Source: Patescibacteria group bacterium (lineage in GTDB: Bacteria > Patescibacteriota > Minisyncoccia > Moranbacterales > UBA9337). From it: a stretch of DNA of 64,000 nucleotides. The stretch is from contig JBHPHA010000002.1 of NCBI GenBank assembly GCA_042569905.1, forward strand, positions 3,756-67,755, written 5' to 3'. A program made the translations under genes and the position numbers. Shown here in pieces: positions 3,570 to 55,486 of the stretch (its first letter is position 1; each line of letters starts with the position of its first letter). Under the pieces are notes generated by a model. It was not told the DNA's origin. It worked only from the letters and a program-made list of their open reading frames with translations, and did no database searches.

Positions 3570-4526
3570 CTAATAAACCATTATTTTTTCTAGCTTCTCT
3601 TGATATTTCTCAAAAACCAATGGACCTTGTGGTTTTGGCAAAAAAATCAACGCTTCATCTGAAGCCTCAATAAAACTACTTTCCATCTTGGTTTTTGGAT
3701 TATTTTCAATTTTCTTTTTTTCAATTTTTCTCAAAAAATCCTCCAGTCTATCAAAATCAAACATTCTTTCCAGAAAAGTCCTTATTGACACAGCAAGTTT
3801 ACTATCAGAAACTTTTTTCAAATTACTAATCTCGCTAATGTAGTAATTTGGTCTAATATTTTTTATCCAATGATTTTTAAGTTGAAACTTCTTGTAATAG
3901 TTATTCACATCAAAAATAGGTGAGGTGAACATATATTCACTAGCAGAGAAAATATTTTTATCAGTAATCTCTAAAGATTTTGTGGTTATAAAATAATTCA
4001 AACAAACTCTATCCCTAATCTTATTTCCATATCGTCTTTTTCCTAGAATGTGCGTCAATAAAGTTACTAAAGTTCTTCCAATCCAAATTCGATTATTCTT
4101 AAGTACCACCAATAAATCCCAGTCACTTTCATTTTCAGCATTCTTCATTGAAAGCCTTCCCGTAATTAAAAGCATCCTCACGAAAGGTACAAATCTCAAG
4201 CACCACACAACATTTCTAAGTCTTTTTATTTTTGTATTTGAAATCTTACTATTCCTAACTCTCCTATCAACCAAATCGCCCTCTCCTGCAAGAAAATAAT
4301 ATCCACGAGACATTTCAATCACTCTTCTCAGTTCGTCACTCTCAAGACCACTTATCACATCTAATAATGAGTATTCCCTTTTTTCAAAATCACTATCCAA
4401 ATTCATCTTCTCCCTGTCCATTTTATCTATTATAAACTTCCAGATTTCAAAAGCAGTTAATGGATAATTCAGCGCACTATAATAACAAATCGTACTAACA
4501 ATATTTTTCGATAAATAAGAATTCAT
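3570..4526 (-). CDS. hypothetical protein, possible nucleotidyltransferase-fold
   Basis: 318 aa; ITGRLSMKNAENESDWDLLVV resembles the GS..DxD minimal NTase motif; weak. Confidence 0.45.
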   Translation of the reverse strand: MNSYLSKNIVSTICYYSALNYPLTAFEIWKFIIDKMDREKMNLDSDFEKREYSLLDVISGLESDELRRVIEMSRGYYFLAGEGDLVDRRVRNSKISNTKIKRLRNVVWCLRFVPFVRMLLITGRLSMKNAENESDWDLLVVLKNNRIWIGRTLVTLLTHILGKRRYGNKIRDRVCLNYFITTKSLEITDKNIFSASEYMFTSPIFDVNNYYKKFQLKNHWIKNIRPNYYISEISNLKKVSDSKLAVSIRTFLERMFDFDRLEDFLRKIEKKKIENNPKTKMESSFIEASDEALIFLPKPQGPLVFEKYQEKLEKIMVY

Positions 4527-4652: not shown

Positions 4653-5213
4653 CTATCTCTTTAGTTCTTTTGCTTGCTCCATGCACTTCTGAATGGCGGC
4701 ATACTCGGGGTTGTTGTATTTTACTATATTATGAGCAATCCCACTATCATATAAAACCCATATAAAAATAACTGCAGCTACACCGGAAATGATAAAATAA
4801 TTAACTGCCCAGTTCTCCCTTGAGCTTTTTTCTTTTTCACTTTCACCCTCAACAGACCTATCTATTTTCAAGCCCACTCGAAAACAGATACTAGCCATTA
4901 TCGCAAACAACAAAATCCAGAAAGTGGAAAATATAATATCAGCCATAGCCTCCGCTTTCGCCTGTTTTACATAAATTGGGAAAGCGTCTTCGGCCAAGGA
5001 CTCCACCTTCAAAAGCAACTCTTTCAGTTCACCTCCGCCGTTCTCCATGATTTCCTTGGTATTATCACCAAGGTCTAATTTCAGCGAAAAACTCGACGGA
5101 ATTTCGGTAGAATTATCCTCATTTTCCGCCAATGCATTGCCTGAAAAAGGCAAAGACATAGCTACCAGTGTAAATACCATCGTCAAAATTACTTTCTTCG
5201 TGTTCGTCAACAT
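4653..5213 (-). CDS. hypothetical signal-peptide / membrane protein
   Basis: Track ORF 4653..5417 trimmed to ATG 5213, which has a GGAGGAG RBS just upstream. MLTNTKKVILTMVFTLVAMSLPFSGNALA signal-like N-terminus; C-terminal TM helices. Confidence 0.55.
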   Translation of the reverse strand: MLTNTKKVILTMVFTLVAMSLPFSGNALAENEDNSTEIPSSFSLKLDLGDNTKEIMENGGGELKELLLKVESLAEDAFPIYVKQAKAEAMADIIFSTFWILLFAIMASICFRVGLKIDRSVEGESEKEKSSRENWAVNYFIISGVAAVIFIWVLYDSGIAHNIVKYNNPEYAAIQKCMEQAKELKR

Positions 5214-5440
5214 GATTTTCTCCTCCACAGTAAGATTACTTGAATTGAGCAATTGCTCAGGGTTAACCTTTTTTAAAAAACTTTGACTGTTAAGACTAGT
5301 ATACCTTAATAATGTTGTCAATAGATTAGATGACATGCATTTATAGCTGATGCTTTTATTTAGGGATCCTGAAACAAGTTCAGAATGACAAGAAACAAAA
5401 ACCACCCGATCGCTCAAGTGGTTTCTATTCTTCCTGTTAT

Positions 5441-10500: not shown

Positions 10501-11736
10501 TTATCGATATAATGGGAAATTTTTGCAAAGCGCTTTCACTTCTTTGTGAATCAATTTCAAAACTTCTTCGTCGTCATGACTTTCAACTGCAGCGTTGATC
10601 CAATTGGCAATCTTTTTCACCTCTCCCTTTTTCATTCCTCTAGTTGTCATAGCTGGGGTTCCAATTCTGATTCCACTTGGATCCATTGGACTTCTTGGGT
10701 CATCTGGAATCATATTCTTATTCACAGTGATTCCAATTTTATCCAAAGCAACCTCTGCTTCTTGCCCAGTAACTTCCTTACTTCCAAAAACATCCACTAA
10801 AACCATATGATTCTCAGTTCCTCCAAACATCATCTTAAAACCATAAGAAGTCAACTCCTCCTCTAAAACTTTGGCATTAACAATTATTTGCTTAGCGTAT
10901 TTCTTGAAAGATGGCTTCAATGCTTCCCCAAAAGAAACAGCTTTAGCTGCAATATTATTCATATGTGGACCACCTTGAAATCCTGGGAAAGCTGATTTGT
11001 TAATCGCCTTAGCATACTTTTCCTTGCAAAGAATCATTCCTCCCCTTGGGCCACGCAATGTTTTGTGAGTAGTAGTTGTTACAATATCGAAATATGGAGT
11101 AGGATTCTCAATTGCACCTCCCGCAATGAGTCCAGCAATGTGAGCAATGTCAATCATCAGAATTGCCCCTACTTTGTCAGCAATTTTTCTAAATTTTTTG
11201 TAATCCAAATTCCTAGTATAAGCAGAAAAACCAGCCAAAATCATTTTTGGCTTTTCCTTAATCGCCATCGCCTCTAATTCTTTGTAATCAATTTTTCCAT
11301 TCTTAGCTGTTTTGTATCCCTTAAATTTATAAATCTGAGCTGAGAGTGTTACTGGGTGACCATGAGTCAAATGTCCTCCATGAGAAAGATCCATCCCCAA
11401 AATCTTATCCCCTGGCTCCAAAACGGCGCTATACGCAATCATATTTGCAGGCGCGCCTGAATGTGGCTGTACGTTTACATGCTCCGCACCAAAAAGCTTT
11501 TTAGCCCTTTCAATTGCCAAGTTTTCAACGACATCAGTATACTCTTGCCCCCCATAATATCTTTTTCCTGGATACCCTTCAGAATATTTATTTGTAAAAA
11601 CTGTTCCCAGTGCTTCAAGAACTGCCTTTGAAACATAATTCTCCGAAGCAATCATTTCCAAACCTTCTTCCTGCCTCTTCAATTCCTTCATTGTGGCATC
11701 ATAAACTTTTGGATCTGTCTTTTTTAGATTTTTCAT
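10501..11736 (-). CDS. glyA: serine hydroxymethyltransferase
   Basis: MKNLKKTDPKVYDATMKELKRQEEGLEMIASENY..; PLP site TTTTHKTLRGPRGG. Start trimmed from 11814 to ATG 11736. Confidence 0.95.
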   Translation of the reverse strand: MKNLKKTDPKVYDATMKELKRQEEGLEMIASENYVSKAVLEALGTVFTNKYSEGYPGKRYYGGQEYTDVVENLAIERAKKLFGAEHVNVQPHSGAPANMIAYSAVLEPGDKILGMDLSHGGHLTHGHPVTLSAQIYKFKGYKTAKNGKIDYKELEAMAIKEKPKMILAGFSAYTRNLDYKKFRKIADKVGAILMIDIAHIAGLIAGGAIENPTPYFDIVTTTTHKTLRGPRGGMILCKEKYAKAINKSAFPGFQGGPHMNNIAAKAVSFGEALKPSFKKYAKQIIVNAKVLEEELTSYGFKMMFGGTENHMVLVDVFGSKEVTGQEAEVALDKIGITVNKNMIPDDPRSPMDPSGIRIGTPAMTTRGMKKGEVKKIANWINAAVESHDDEEVLKLIHKEVKALCKNFPLYR

Positions 11737-11830
11737 ATCTTTGTTTTTCCCAGTTAATTTATTACGTTCCCTTAATATATGGTAACTATTTATAATTTTA
11801 TCATTATTCAGCATTAAATCAAAAAGTGAC

Positions 11831-11864
11831 TAAGATTACCACGCACTGTAGCGTGGTAATCTTA
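11831..11864. repeat. perfect 14-bp-stem palindrome, core TACCACGC-ACTGTA-GCGTGGTA (copy 1), abutting the glyA promoter
   Basis: taagattaccacgc actgta gcgtggtaatctta read directly; same 22-nt core as 12501-12536. Confidence 0.85.
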
Positions 11865-11930
11865 GTGGTGGTCAATGATAGTATCACAAATACCAATCAT
11901 GAAAAACACCTCTATGTATTGGGGTGATTT

Positions 11931-12449
11931 TCATTTCATTAATCTTTTTAATTTACGGTATAATTCAGTTTTTTCTTTCATCTTGTCCATCTCGACAATA
12001 ACATTTCTCAATTTCTCCTTTTGCTTTCTGCTTGAGCTTTTAATAATATTTTCCAAAATAATTTCCGGCCAATAATACATTGGGTATCGCTTTTTTATTG
12101 AATTTAAATCAACAACAGGACATTCTTCCTTGATATTAATATTCTTCTTTCGCGTTTTTCTAACAGCTGCCCTGTATCCATCTCCTGATATCTTCAACCA
12201 CTCTTGAACCCTTGCAATAGTACTATATCCAACTCCCAACTCATTTCTAATGTCCTCATAAGAATACTTGTCTAGTAAAAGTTCAGATATCTTCAATCTC
12301 TTCGCAATCATCTCCGCCTCCTTAATTGAAAGAAGGTCCCGCAAAAGAGCTGCTGCCTCGTCAACTTTTTTTGTTTTTGAAATTGCTAATGATAATTTGT
12401 AAAAAATCATTCCTATTTCTTTTTTTGACATTTTTTTAGAACCTACCAT
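11931..12449 (-). CDS. TrpR / YerC-YecD-like helix-turn-helix regulator
   Basis: LLSIKEAEMIAKRLKISELLL..SYEDIRNELGVGYSTIARVQEWL resembles the TrpR-related YerC/YecD family. The track GTG start (12503) lies inside the palindrome stem, so an internal ATG is preferred; start uncertain. Confidence 0.65.
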   Translation of the reverse strand: MVGSKKMSKKEIGMIFYKLSLAISKTKKVDEAAALLRDLLSIKEAEMIAKRLKISELLLDKYSYEDIRNELGVGYSTIARVQEWLKISGDGYRAAVRKTRKKNINIKEECPVVDLNSIKKRYPMYYWPEIILENIIKSSSRKQKEKLRNVIVEMDKMKEKTELYRKLKRLMK

Positions 12450-12500
12450 ATCTTTAATGACACTATTAACTAAATTGGATTTACATAATCTCAATTTAGT

Positions 12501-12536
12501 CACATACTACCACGCACTGTAGCGTGGTAGTATGTG
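12501..12536. repeat. perfect 15-bp-stem palindrome, same core (copy 2), immediately 5' of the TrpR-like gene
   Basis: cacatactaccacgc actgta gcgtggtagtatgtg read directly. Confidence 0.85.
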
Positions 12537-12894
12537 GTATTTAAATAGATTGGGTGTAGACTCTTTTGTTGATCTTTATTGTCACTGTTCTTTACTAATT
12601 ATCTGCTCTCAAGTAACGCAAGCTGTTTGTGATATTGCAAGTTACTCACTAATTTCCTTCAAATACTTCTTCATAGCTCCTCAGTGGATTTAATTTCTTG
12701 ATTATCAATTCCTAAAAATATAGTTCTAACTAGATGGGTAAATTAATCTCGTACAACTGGAGTGATTCTAGTTTCAATCCATATCTACTGCCTCATGCTA
12801 AGCCATTATTTGATTTTATTATACTACCATGATAACATAATTCCAGGTTGAATTGCTCTTTTTATCTAAAAAGTTACTACTTATAGGAGTAAGT

Positions 12895-13341
12895 ATGTCT
12901 GATCAAAAAACGGTAGCGATAATATTGTGGAGCTATCCGAAAATTGTAACCATTCACAGAAAAAGTGGTGTTTTTTATGCAAGAGAAATTGATGTAACGC
13001 GTGATACATGTCTCGAACACACATCAGAAATGATCATTCCACCACACAATAACAAATTCAAAACCCACTGGTCTTCCAGAACGGGTTTGGAATTGCAATC
13101 AGAAAAGTACCGGAATTGGAAAAGCATTTCACTAGAATCAAAGAATTCCGAAACAGCCACGGGTATTGCTCTCAGAGAATTGGCCAAAAGACTTCTCTAT
13201 TTATTTACAATCATCATAGCATTGGCGCATCCAGATGACTCATACCTTGACGGCCTGGATCGTGAAAATCTTGGCATTGAAAATGACGAGATTCTTTTCA
13301 TCAACCAAACTATGCGTAAAATTAAAAAGGAAGACAGCTAG
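12895..13341 (+). CDS. hypothetical protein
   Basis: ATG 12895 preceded by taggagtaagt RBS; the track TTG start at 12853 is less likely. Confidence 0.5.
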   Translation: MSDQKTVAIILWSYPKIVTIHRKSGVFYAREIDVTRDTCLEHTSEMIIPPHNNKFKTHWSSRTGLELQSEKYRNWKSISLESKNSETATGIALRELAKRLLYLFTIIIALAHPDDSYLDGLDRENLGIENDEILFINQTMRKIKKEDS

Positions 13342-29693: not shown

Positions 29694-30395
29694 TCATCCC
29701 TGATAAGTATTCACCACTTTGTTTGCAAAATTATTAAGCTCTTTTACCTTTTCCTCAGGAGTAAATCCATCCTCATATACGTCCAATCGCAAAAGGATGT
29801 CTGCTTGAATTTTTGAATCCTTGTATCCACCTGTTTTCAAGTCAAATGACACATTCTCCCTATCTCCATCTTCCCTCACAATCTCAACCCAGCCATCGAT
29901 TCCACATTGATAATCCAAAGGAGTACCTACTGCAGTGTAGAAATTCACCTCTGAAATATTTAAGTTAGCTTGTTTTAATTTTTGAATAAGTACTAATTCA
30001 GCCTCTCTGGAAACATTTTGCTCACTCTTATCTTTTTCTGCTGGCTGATGCTGTCTTGCGAAGTCAAAAAGTGCATTTTTCACTTTCTCATAATCCTCAG
30101 GAGTTTTTCGAGTAGGCACAGGAACCTTCTCCTTTCTCCCTATCTTACACTTACCCAAAAGAGACTCTTCGCATACATGACCCCTATCAATCTCTCTTGT
30201 AATGGGGTTCACCATGTATCCCTTTTTCTCAATCAGTCCTCTTTTTGCAGCTTCTCTTTTGACATACTCAGCGTACGGCATTCTCTTAAAACTAGGTTTC
30301 TCAGATCTTTCACGCTTCCCAGCCTTAGACGCTGCAATATCCCTCCTTTTCCTTTCTGGACTATTCGTAAATGTTGGCATTCTTTCAAAGCTCAT
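29694..30395 (-). CDS. hypothetical protein, family A (basic N-terminus + conserved C-domain)
   Basis: 233 aa; clear paralog of 33958..34680 (shared KPSF..M.YA(D/E)Y, LFDFAR.HQP, AVGTPLDYQCG(I/V)DGWVEIV, FDLKTG, IQADI(L/M)L). Confidence 0.65.
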   Translation of the reverse strand: MSFERMPTFTNSPERKRRDIAASKAGKRERSEKPSFKRMPYAEYVKREAAKRGLIEKKGYMVNPITREIDRGHVCEESLLGKCKIGRKEKVPVPTRKTPEDYEKVKNALFDFARQHQPAEKDKSEQNVSREAELVLIQKLKQANLNISEVNFYTAVGTPLDYQCGIDGWVEIVREDGDRENVSFDLKTGGYKDSKIQADILLRLDVYEDGFTPEEKVKELNNFANKVVNTYQG

Positions 30396-30576
30396 ATTTT
30401 TAAAATCATATCAATCTTTTACAGATTAAATGATGTTATTATTTACAAGATATTACACTAAAAGTATACCACCAAAGATTGAGTCAAACAAAAAAAGTAC
30501 CATTTAAATTGCAATTTAAATGGTACTTTAATTTATCATTATGCCTTACACTGAAATAGAGAACTCACATAATCTC

Positions 30577-30662: not shown

Positions 30663-31007
30663 ATGATGGATTTAGTTATCACAATCGCAATACTGGGCAC
30701 TGGAACAATGATCGGCGGTAAGATTTTTAAGCTTACCGCGGGACATATAACTGAATTAGCAATTCTTCAGTTAGCAGCAGCTGCATTTTATTATGTAGCC
30801 AGTGTCGACATACTCCCCGTTAATCCGAAGTTTGTCATAAACATAGTAGTTTGCTCAACCTTGCTCTGTGACGGGTTCTTACAGGACCCAAAAAAAAGAA
30901 ACCTAAAGCGAACCCTTCTAAAAATAGCGGTGCAGGTAATTGCAATACTGTTGTGTGCTTACTTATTAGGTGATAGTATCTCAAACTTATTCACATTGAA
31001 TTATTAA
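30663..31007 (+). CDS. hypothetical membrane protein
   Basis: 114 aa, 3-4 TM; AGGAGA RBS; terminator at 31032-31066. Confidence 0.6.
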   Translation: MMDLVITIAILGTGTMIGGKIFKLTAGHITELAILQLAAAAFYYVASVDILPVNPKFVINIVVCSTLLCDGFLQDPKKRNLKRTLLKIAVQVIAILLCAYLLGDSISNLFTLNY

Positions 31008-31031
31008 GAAAAAAACGCCCTGACAAACAAT

Positions 31032-31066
31032 AAAGTCGCAAGGAAAACCCTGCGACTTTTTTATTT
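31032..31066 (+). terminator. terminator family T-c, copy 1
   Basis: aaagtcgcaaggaaaaccctgcgactttttt; same 31 nt occurs at 37626-37660. Confidence 0.7.
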
Positions 31067-31084
31067 TTCTCATTTTAACGTATC

Positions 31085-37602: not shown

Positions 37603-37625
37603 AAAAACCACTCCCAAAAAAAGTC

Positions 37626-37660
37626 AAAGTCGCAAGGAAAACCCTGCGACTTTTTTTATT
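37626..37660 (+). terminator. terminator family T-c, copy 2
   Basis: aaagtcgcaaggaaaaccctgcgacttttttt. Confidence 0.7.
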
Positions 37661-37677
37661 TTCCAAATCTCGAACTT

Positions 37678-38026: not shown

Positions 38027-38098
38027 CCCCCTTGTCATTCCGGAAAACATATTTTTCAAAATAAGATACGAATTTTAGAAAAATAGTTTATCCGGAAT
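38027..38098 (+). repeat. TTGTCATYC-terminus hairpin element, type A, copy 1
   Basis: cccccttgtcattccggaaaacatatttttc...gaaaaatagtttatccggaat; arms attccgga/tccggaat and aaacatatttttc/gaaaaatagttt pair. Confidence 0.75.
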
Positions 38099-39350: not shown

Positions 39351-39424
39351 CCCCCAGTTGTCATCCTGGAAAGTATATTTTTCCAAACGAGGTACGAGTT
39401 TGAGAAAAATAACTTATCCGGGAT
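39351..39424 (+). repeat. TTGTCATYC-terminus hairpin element, type A, copy 2
   Basis: cccccagttgtcatcctggaaagtatatttttcc...gagaaaaataacttatccgggat. Confidence 0.75.
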
Positions 39425-55408: not shown

Positions 55409-55486
55409 ATTCCGGATAAGTTAATTTCTTTGAACTCGTACCTCATTCAAGAAATTATACTTTCCGGAATGACAAGCTACGGGGGG
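55409..55486 (-). repeat. TTGTCATYC-terminus hairpin element, type A, copy 3 (inverted)
   Basis: attccggataagttaatttctttgaactcgtacctcattcaagaaattatactttccggaatgacaagctacgggggg. Confidence 0.75.

Follow-up and report, generated by a model that had tools for sequence, protein, structure and literature searches.

The window, by which we mean the whole 64-kb stretch of DNA that was analyzed, carries a gene for a TrpR-like regulator (11931-12449) and, downstream from it, the glyA gene for serine hydroxymethyltransferase (10501-11814), both on the minus strand. The regulator gene encodes a protein of 172 aa, the homologues of which begin with MVGSKK; the mechanically derived open reading frame (ORF) extends further, to a GTG at 12503, which falls within one of the two palindromes that are the subject of this analysis. 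These palindromes are found on either side of the gene. Copy 1, the 3' site (11829-11866), is located between the stop codon of the regulator gene and glyA, and copy 2, the 5' site (12501-12536), is located 5' of the regulator gene. A divergent ORF of 162 aa on the plus strand (12853-13341) follows beyond copy 2. This context, with a TrpR-like gene between the copies, glyA after copy 1 and a divergent ORF beyond copy 2, is as described in the original prediction made for this DNA.

The longest ORF for glyA starts at 11814, inside a predicted promoter (see below), and the match to the SHMT family in Pfam begins at residue 30. The ATG at 11736 (MKNLKK...) is probably the true start of glyA.

Anatomy and copy number of the two palindromes

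Perfect palindromes were confirmed at both places in the 64-kb window. Copy 1 has perfect arms of 16 bp and copy 2 perfect arms of 15 bp, in both cases around the 6-nt centre ACTGTA; copy 1 had been predicted at the right place, but its arms turned out to be 2 bp longer on each side. The 22-mer common to both copies, TACCACGCACTGTAGCGTGGTA, is found at 11837-11858 in copy 1 and at 12508-12529 in copy 2, where it reads TACCACGC-TAC·AGT-GCGTGGTA on the regulator strand (the dot marks the centre of the dyad). It occurs exactly twice in the window, so the central claim of two perfect palindromes with an identical 22-nt core bracketing the regulator gene was borne out. No further copies with up to three mismatches were detected in the window, and 100 dinucleotide-preserving shuffles of the window gave no matches to the 22-mer. 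The half-site TACCACGC is present five times in the window against 0.32 expected, four of these being in the two palindromes, and relaxed patterns produced additional sites in the window at chance level only.

On the regulator strand copy 2 reads CACATACT-ACC-ACGCTAC·AGTGCGT-GGT-AGTATGTG. Compared with the family consensus described below, the outer arm of copy 2 has kept the family-type ATACT box (CACATACT...), and the inner box of the window sites is the variant ACGCT/ACGCA instead of ATACT, the arm thus reading ...ATACT-ACC-ACGCT.... In copy 1 the outer box is replaced by AGATT, and this is the case in both arms. The earlier observation that the outer stems differ between the copies and still are complementary is therefore real, and it is general across the 59 loci analyzed below. 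The centre of copy 2 lies 69 nt 5' of the regulator ATG, and the centre of copy 1 lies 83 nt 3' of the regulator stop codon.

The window holds other inverted repeats as well. A perfect 36-bp palindrome without a loop, AAAGTACCATTTAAATTG·CAATTTAAATGGTACTTT (30494-30529), is placed between two divergent ORFs of 233 aa (29694-30395, minus strand) and 114 aa (30663-31007, plus strand) and may serve as operator for a different regulator. An imperfect hairpin element of approximately 62 nt (ATTCCGGAAAACATATTTTTC...GAAAAATAGTTTATCCGGAAT) is present in three copies (38037-38098, 39363-39424, and 55409-55470), two of them in one orientation and one inverted; a GCCCCC..TGTCAT-like stretch precedes the copies of the same orientation and is mirrored on the other side of the inverted copy, and no Rfam match to the element was obtained. 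Finally, two terminator-like hairpins (31022-31069 and 37617-37662) have nearly the same stem (AAGTCGCAAGG....CCCTGCGACTTTTTT).

The regulator protein

The 172-aa ORF is identical to the protein P0001, which carries the NCBI name Trp family transcriptional regulator from a Patescibacteria group bacterium. Residues 37-116 match the Pfam family PF01371 (Trp_repressor; E = 3e-16, score 59.7 bits, cut-off 27), and the N-terminal approximately 105 residues make up the TrpR/HisR fold. When a profile of the family was compared with PDB sequences, the HisR-like entries 3frw, 3g1c, and 3kor were matched at E = 5e-15 to 2e-13, and E. coli TrpR was also matched, though more weakly. An AlphaFold (AF2) model with a mean pLDDT of 77 gave target TM-scores of about 0.8 on the same three HisR-like structures with Foldseek. 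Sequence matches and predicted model thus both assign a TrpR fold to the regulator. The HisR group, represented by YerC of B. subtilis, is the closest one by sequence as well as by structure (3g1c, 3frw), and the score against the YerC/YecD equivalog model TIGR02531 was 41.1 bits, which is just under the cut-off of 42.2.

Approximately 60 residues at the C-terminus make up a helical extension that is specific to the family; it contains the motif KKRYPMYYWPE, in which K119, Y125, W127, and P128 are invariant, and it has three or four helices in the predicted structure. A structure search with the whole model returned no PDB fold match for this C-terminal domain, and in a search of 1.8 billion representative proteins the domain turned up C-terminally in proteins of this architecture and hardly anywhere else.

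The site-gene-site unit is conserved across lineages

For analysis of the palindromes in other organisms, contigs with close homologues of the regulator and 80 metagenome loci found with a family alignment were collected, and both flanks of each gene were scanned for palindromes. A related palindrome was present on both sides of the gene in 70 of the 79 loci with both flanks readable, corresponding to 59 distinct regulator genes. The regulator was found in Parcubacteria-type as well as Microgenomates-type lineages. The centre of the 5' site is placed 14-120 nt (median 41, most often 30-45) 5' of the ATG, and the centre of the 3' site from -4 to 83 nt (median 28) 3' of the stop codon, giving centre-to-centre distances of 563-691 bp. 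The palindromes have a median length of 34 bp and extend up to 50 bp; perfect arms of at least 15 bp are found in 14 of the 59 sites on each side, the longest being 26 bp.

The sequence of the sites tracks the lineage of the regulator. The two copies at the same locus match in a median of 21 of the 22 core positions, compared to 13 of 22 between lineages (p = 1e-38), and a match of at least 19 of 22 positions is seen in 92% of the same-locus pairs but in only 2.7% of the cross-lineage pairs. Synteny on one or both sides is kept in nearly all pairs of regulators that are at least 70% identical. In one locus (L081, contig Ga0172379_10003506) the sequences to the left and right of the 3' palindrome (centre at approximately 3555) are perfect mirror images of each other over 900 nt or more, resulting in two identical convergent copies of the regulator gene; either the palindrome caused the assembly to fold back here, or the inverted duplication is real.

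The consensus over 113 distinct sites (226 half-sites) reads AAaTACTnCcATACTnn up to the centre of the dyad and contains two ATACT boxes in each arm with 8-bp spacing, at positions -13, -5, +5, and +13 from the centre. The full family dyad is AAATACTnCCATACTnn·nnAGTATGGnAGTATTT, and the boxes are of the (A/G)NACT type. TrpR has GNACT half-sites with 8-bp tandem spacing, and YerC from B. subtilis is the histidine repressor HisR, which has 20-bp palindromic operators and is often autoregulated (PMC9413887). The ATACT boxes of the family have this TrpR-type arrangement and are similar to the GNACT half-site. In five regulators the conserved Thr of the sequence G-T-I-A-R-V is changed to Lys, and four of these five have sites without the box. 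This Thr aligns with the DNA-contacting Thr81 of TrpR. With five genes from approximately three lineages, such a covariation between contact residue and site is suggestive only.

Occurrence of the core outside the window

The 18-mer CCACGCACTGTAGCGTGG was searched as an exact match in one genome per species, 185,579 species genomes in all, and gave four hits with one exact hit per genome, two of them in CPR genomes. The remaining hits, in Trueperaceae and Thermofilaceae, were taken as chance matches, as they lack extended arms and are no more numerous than expected by chance. One CPR hit, on a Woesebacteria contig (L004), is placed directly 3' of a homologue with only 31% overall identity to the window regulator, and a second copy with one mismatch is placed directly 5' of the same gene. 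The orientation of the centre relative to the gene is as in the window, and the segment with the recognition helix (VGYSTIARV) is the same in the two proteins. The other CPR hit, on a Gottesmanbacteria contig (L003, 2581-2598), is a solo copy with perfect arms of 15 bp located between convergent genes. This solo site comes directly after a gene for a PEP-utilising enzyme, and the regulator gene in another locus (L027) is likewise preceded by a PEP synthase gene.

In approximately 300 kb of flanking DNA one clear third copy was found, in L027, and 57 of the 59 loci had none extra. The L027 copy (at approximately 4414) is exact, shares approximately 55 nt of flank with the others, and is found before a 234-aa ORF. 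In L062 a site of the type belonging to another lineage, ACTATACTACCAAGTATTAGAG, is found ahead of a strong TGTGGTATAAT promoter approximately 150 nt past its own 3' site (at approximately 3680-3720), which suggests that a paralogous regulator may be encoded in that genome as well.

These searches bear directly on the question of whether the palindromes are a generic dispersed repeat of the REP or BIME kind, or a chance pair, unconnected to the regulator. Such a repeat would also be palindromic, intergenic, and have a core common to its copies, but two copies in 64 kb where none is expected by chance, an exact 18-mer found in just four of 185,579 species genomes with two of these at chance level, and the co-location of the sites with the regulator in 59 lineages make this explanation hardly credible, and on the sequence evidence we regard it as effectively refuted. 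Scatter of the core irrespective of gene context had been named beforehand as evidence against the original prediction, and such REP-like scatter was not seen in the window or in the genome collection. The searches also provide a point against an operator, as sites in addition to the bracketing pair are few (L027 and L003) for a regulator that needs targets.

DNA sites, RNA hairpins, or a gene cassette

As single strands both palindromes fold stably, with energies between -27 and -30 kcal/mol and z-scores near -8 (from -6.4 to -8.6 relative to shuffled sequences), and they could accordingly be RNA hairpins, the 3' copy serving as intrinsic terminator of the regulator gene and the 5' copy as a leader hairpin or an RNase III or other processing site, with a core that is either incidental or bound as RNA. 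It would fit with this that copy 1 is followed by CACTTTTTGA on the minus strand and was called terminator-like, that 3' copies are found 10-40 nt past the stop codon, and that the non-conserved arm positions are perfectly complementary, as a structural RNA would show. Nevertheless we find such hairpins rather improbable. Copy 1 has the features of a rho-independent terminator, but copy 2 has no T-run and does not qualify, and in the family a T-rich tail on the sense strand accompanies only 10 of the 59 3' sites and 7 of the 59 5' sites, which leaves a general terminator role of the 3' copy unsupported. The mismatches between the arms (18 G.T, 23 A.C, and 51 other, non-wobble) are not biased towards G.U on the sense strand. 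Where the centre is non-symmetric it has the same orientation in both copies in 30 loci and is flipped in 11 (it is symmetric in 18), which a strand-specific loop would not tolerate. Furthermore, the conserved boxes are DNA half-sites of the TrpR type, and Rfam gave nothing at gathering level at the locus or anywhere in the window, the best match being rli38 with E = 0.2. Given the lack of a wobble bias, the flipped centres, the few T-tails, and the lack of an Rfam match, symmetric recognition of double-stranded DNA is favoured over a functional RNA hairpin. Copy 1 of the window may do double duty as a terminator. Transcripts that simply terminate at both hairpins had been named as evidence against the prediction, and from the distribution of terminator-like features such transcripts would not be expected.

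The unit could also be a recombination cassette, where the palindromes would act as lox- or dif-like crossover sites to excise, invert, or move the regulator gene. The layout with an arm of 8-11 bp, an asymmetric centre of 4-6 nt, and a second arm resembles such sites, the copies being direct in 30 loci and inverted in 11, and the repeats on the two sides of the gene can be identical over as much as 52 nt. The unit and a neighbouring ORF (162 aa in the window, 171 aa in its closest relative) are found in swapped order in the two genomes, and a solo site exists in L003 and three sites in L027. However, no recombinase or transposase is found in or near the unit, where the sole gene inside codes for a helix-turn-helix protein; the outer arms of each copy make an intact palindrome of their own, unlike in the hybrid sites attL/attR; and many sites have a centre of 0-2 nt, which is unsuited to tyrosine recombinases. 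Synteny is moreover kept around regulators of at least 70% identity, and neither the core nor any relative of the protein was found in viral contigs. The latter two results argue against a mobile or viral cassette, and we regard cassette recombination in general as quite improbable. The original prediction had offered a hairpin-bounded gene cassette as its own alternative, and the phrase is still adequate as a description of a conserved unit, but not of a mobile one.

In the window the 162-aa ORF with its upstream stretch (12810-13341) is located 5' of the unit, and in the closest relative (L005) the 171-aa ORF with its upstream stretch (4661-5261) is located 3' of it. The two ORFs are 23% identical (E = 2e-7), and a stretch of 39 nt upstream from them is 90% identical. 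The RmlD and glyA genes have unchanged places in the window and L005 despite the ORF swap. A replication origin or terminus, with a Tus- or RTP-like protein encoded beside its sites, was considered as well and ruled out by the lack of a GC-skew switch; the GC skew is uniformly negative (-0.12 to -0.36) over the window (1-64000), with no switch point.

Excess symmetry of the arms

The arms are at least 70% complementary out to 18 nt from the centre, compared to a background of 26%. Among 54 differences between copies in the same genome that affect both arms, 30 keep both copies paired, where approximately 6 would be expected if the changes were independent. Examples of such mirrored differences are the outer arms in the window and the sites in L061, L082, L086, and L049. 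The 4-6-nt centre varies widely between lineages and is nevertheless the same, directly or flipped, in both copies in 51-54 of the 59 loci. Independent binding of a dimer to each half-site predicts neither the mirrored differences nor the matching centres. Perfect arms of 15-26 bp together with mirrored differences at non-conserved positions exceed what a protein dimer would need, and this speaks against a plain operator model. The excess symmetry is not attributable to an RNA hairpin either.

Correction of quasipalindromes by template switching and gene conversion from arm to arm are processes known to act in palindromes. By analogy they would account for the mirrored differences, for perfect arms that continue into non-conserved sequence, and for the flipped centres, and they constitute a mutational process and not a function. 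Most economically, the excess symmetry is best attributed to such a symmetrising process at the DNA level, by arm-to-arm templated correction and gene conversion between the copies, or to selection for cruciform formation. A more elaborate possibility, which we consider unlikely, is that the self-symmetrising and concertedly evolving pair extrudes as cruciforms or hairpins that are recognised or bridged by the C-terminal domain with the gene looped out between them, thus forming a structure-dependent autoregulatory switch, coupled to supercoiling or replication, for a regulator conserved across CPR bacteria, and that the gene occasionally pops out and re-inserts at other operators.

A model with the palindromes as operators

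Returning to recognition of double-stranded DNA, we think it likely that the palindromes are the cognate operators of the TrpR-family regulator encoded between them and that they are autoregulatory. From the anatomy and conservation of the sites, their lineage-specific pairing with the regulator, and the fold of the protein we infer that the protein binds to them, represses, and may form a loop. In this model the composite dyad with two boxes per arm would give room for more than one dimer in tandem, and a 5' site at or adjoining the regulator's own promoter would result in negative autoregulation. The 3' site, placed where the gene ends, would most likely cooperate with the 5' site, for instance through a loop of approximately 600 bp held by an oligomer that forms through the extra C-terminal helical domain, and it may also gate transcription across the gene boundary. 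The effector is probably a small molecule, as it is for TrpR and HisR.

The placement of the 5' site can be compared with this model. With 30-45 nt as the most common distance to the ATG there is no room for a promoter downstream from the 5' site. This site is therefore bound to overlap the core promoter or the leader in the majority of lineages, which fits with autorepression. The window is different in having 69 nt between centre and ATG, and promoter scans were at chance level. No clear peak was seen for a consistent position of the -10 box relative to the site across the loci. The spacing of the two sites was analyzed for helical phasing as a test of looping, and the phasing was not significant.

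Directly after copy 1 and ahead of glyA the minus strand contains the promoter-like sequence TTGATT-16-TAAAAT with an upstream TG (11795-11822), so that the claim of copy 1 abutting a glyA promoter with TTGATT holds as far as a consensus match goes. In this AT-rich region the number of promoter-like matches, 7, is no excess over the 5.8 expected from shuffles. A TTGA box is found at a fixed offset after the site, as TTGAGA for copy 2, as TTGATT for copy 1, and as TTGAAA for the 5' site in the relative with 77% identity. The centres of the window sites are located approximately 60 nt upstream from the guessed start sites, a distance that counts against simple occlusion and is more typical of activation or looping.

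Because copy 1 adjoins the promoter-like element of glyA and is terminator-like, co-regulation of glyA is plausible in this organism, and in the model it would be a probable local consequence of where the 3' site is placed. The genes downstream of the regulator vary widely in the family loci (ileS in five loci, CofD, Rpe, NUDIX, methyltransferases, ComEC, and others), and control of glyA therefore appears as such a local consequence and not as a conserved function of the 3' site. In 10 of 55 loci the next ORF after the regulator is even on the opposite strand, and the 3' site stays with the end of the regulator gene regardless. In the closest relative, which has 77% identity, the 3' site is followed by a convergent gene for 171 aa and by a terminator, another gene separates glyA from the regulator, and glyA was found to have no site of its own. 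A common functional theme downstream, such as amino-acid supply, was ruled out by the diversity of the gene families.

The original prediction had suggested a shared operator for the adjacent helix-turn-helix regulator, acting in autoregulation and on glyA. Judged from the bracketing in 59 loci, the ATACT boxes, and the tracking of lineage, the sites are very probably operators, and the placement of the 5' copy agrees with autoregulation; glyA as a conserved second target found no specific support, given the diverse downstream genes and the relative whose glyA has no site.

Relation to known systems and significance

A close parallel is E. coli TrpR with its trp, aroH, and trpR operators, which has the same fold and (G/A)NACT-type dyads with 8-bp tandem spacing and tandem dimers. 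E. coli TrpR also has an operator at its own promoter, leading to autoregulation (PMC9413887). The CPR protein differs by the additional conserved C-terminal domain of approximately 60 aa, its sites, with a median of 34 bp and a maximum of 50 bp, exceed those of TrpR in length and are often perfect, and the unit has a second site at the 3' end of the gene; in the window the box is ACGCT, where the family has ATACT, and there are no trp genes nearby. The HisR proteins are below approximately 110 aa and without a C-terminal domain. The HisR motif cacTTTAnnnnnnTAAAgtg is absent from the CPR loci, the site consensus differs, and no his genes are found among the downstream neighbours. To our knowledge, no HisR gene has been described as bracketed by sites in this way. 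Looping repressors such as LacI (O1/O2/O3), GalR (OE/OI), and DeoR have two cognate dyads separated by a few hundred bp, the first at the promoter and the second inside the gene or past its end. The CPR unit may form such a loop, though no helical phasing was detected, and an oligomerisation module in the repressor is plausible. In kind this is probably a TrpR-family operator system, and what is new is a CPR-specific regulator with an added C-terminal domain, the bracketing by two sites, and the unusually long self-symmetric palindromes.

As far as we know, genomes of CPR/Patescibacteria encode very few transcription factors, and for almost none of these is the binding site known. Should no more than the ordinary part of the model hold, the regulator would be a routine autoregulated repressor. 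The pairing of a regulator with a well-defined candidate operator that varies between lineages provides a testable protein-DNA pair, and a position-weight matrix made from the sites could be used for regulon finding in complete CPR genomes. With its mirrored substitutions, flipped centres, and concerted copies the site-gene-site bracket would also offer a natural case for the evolution of palindromic operators.
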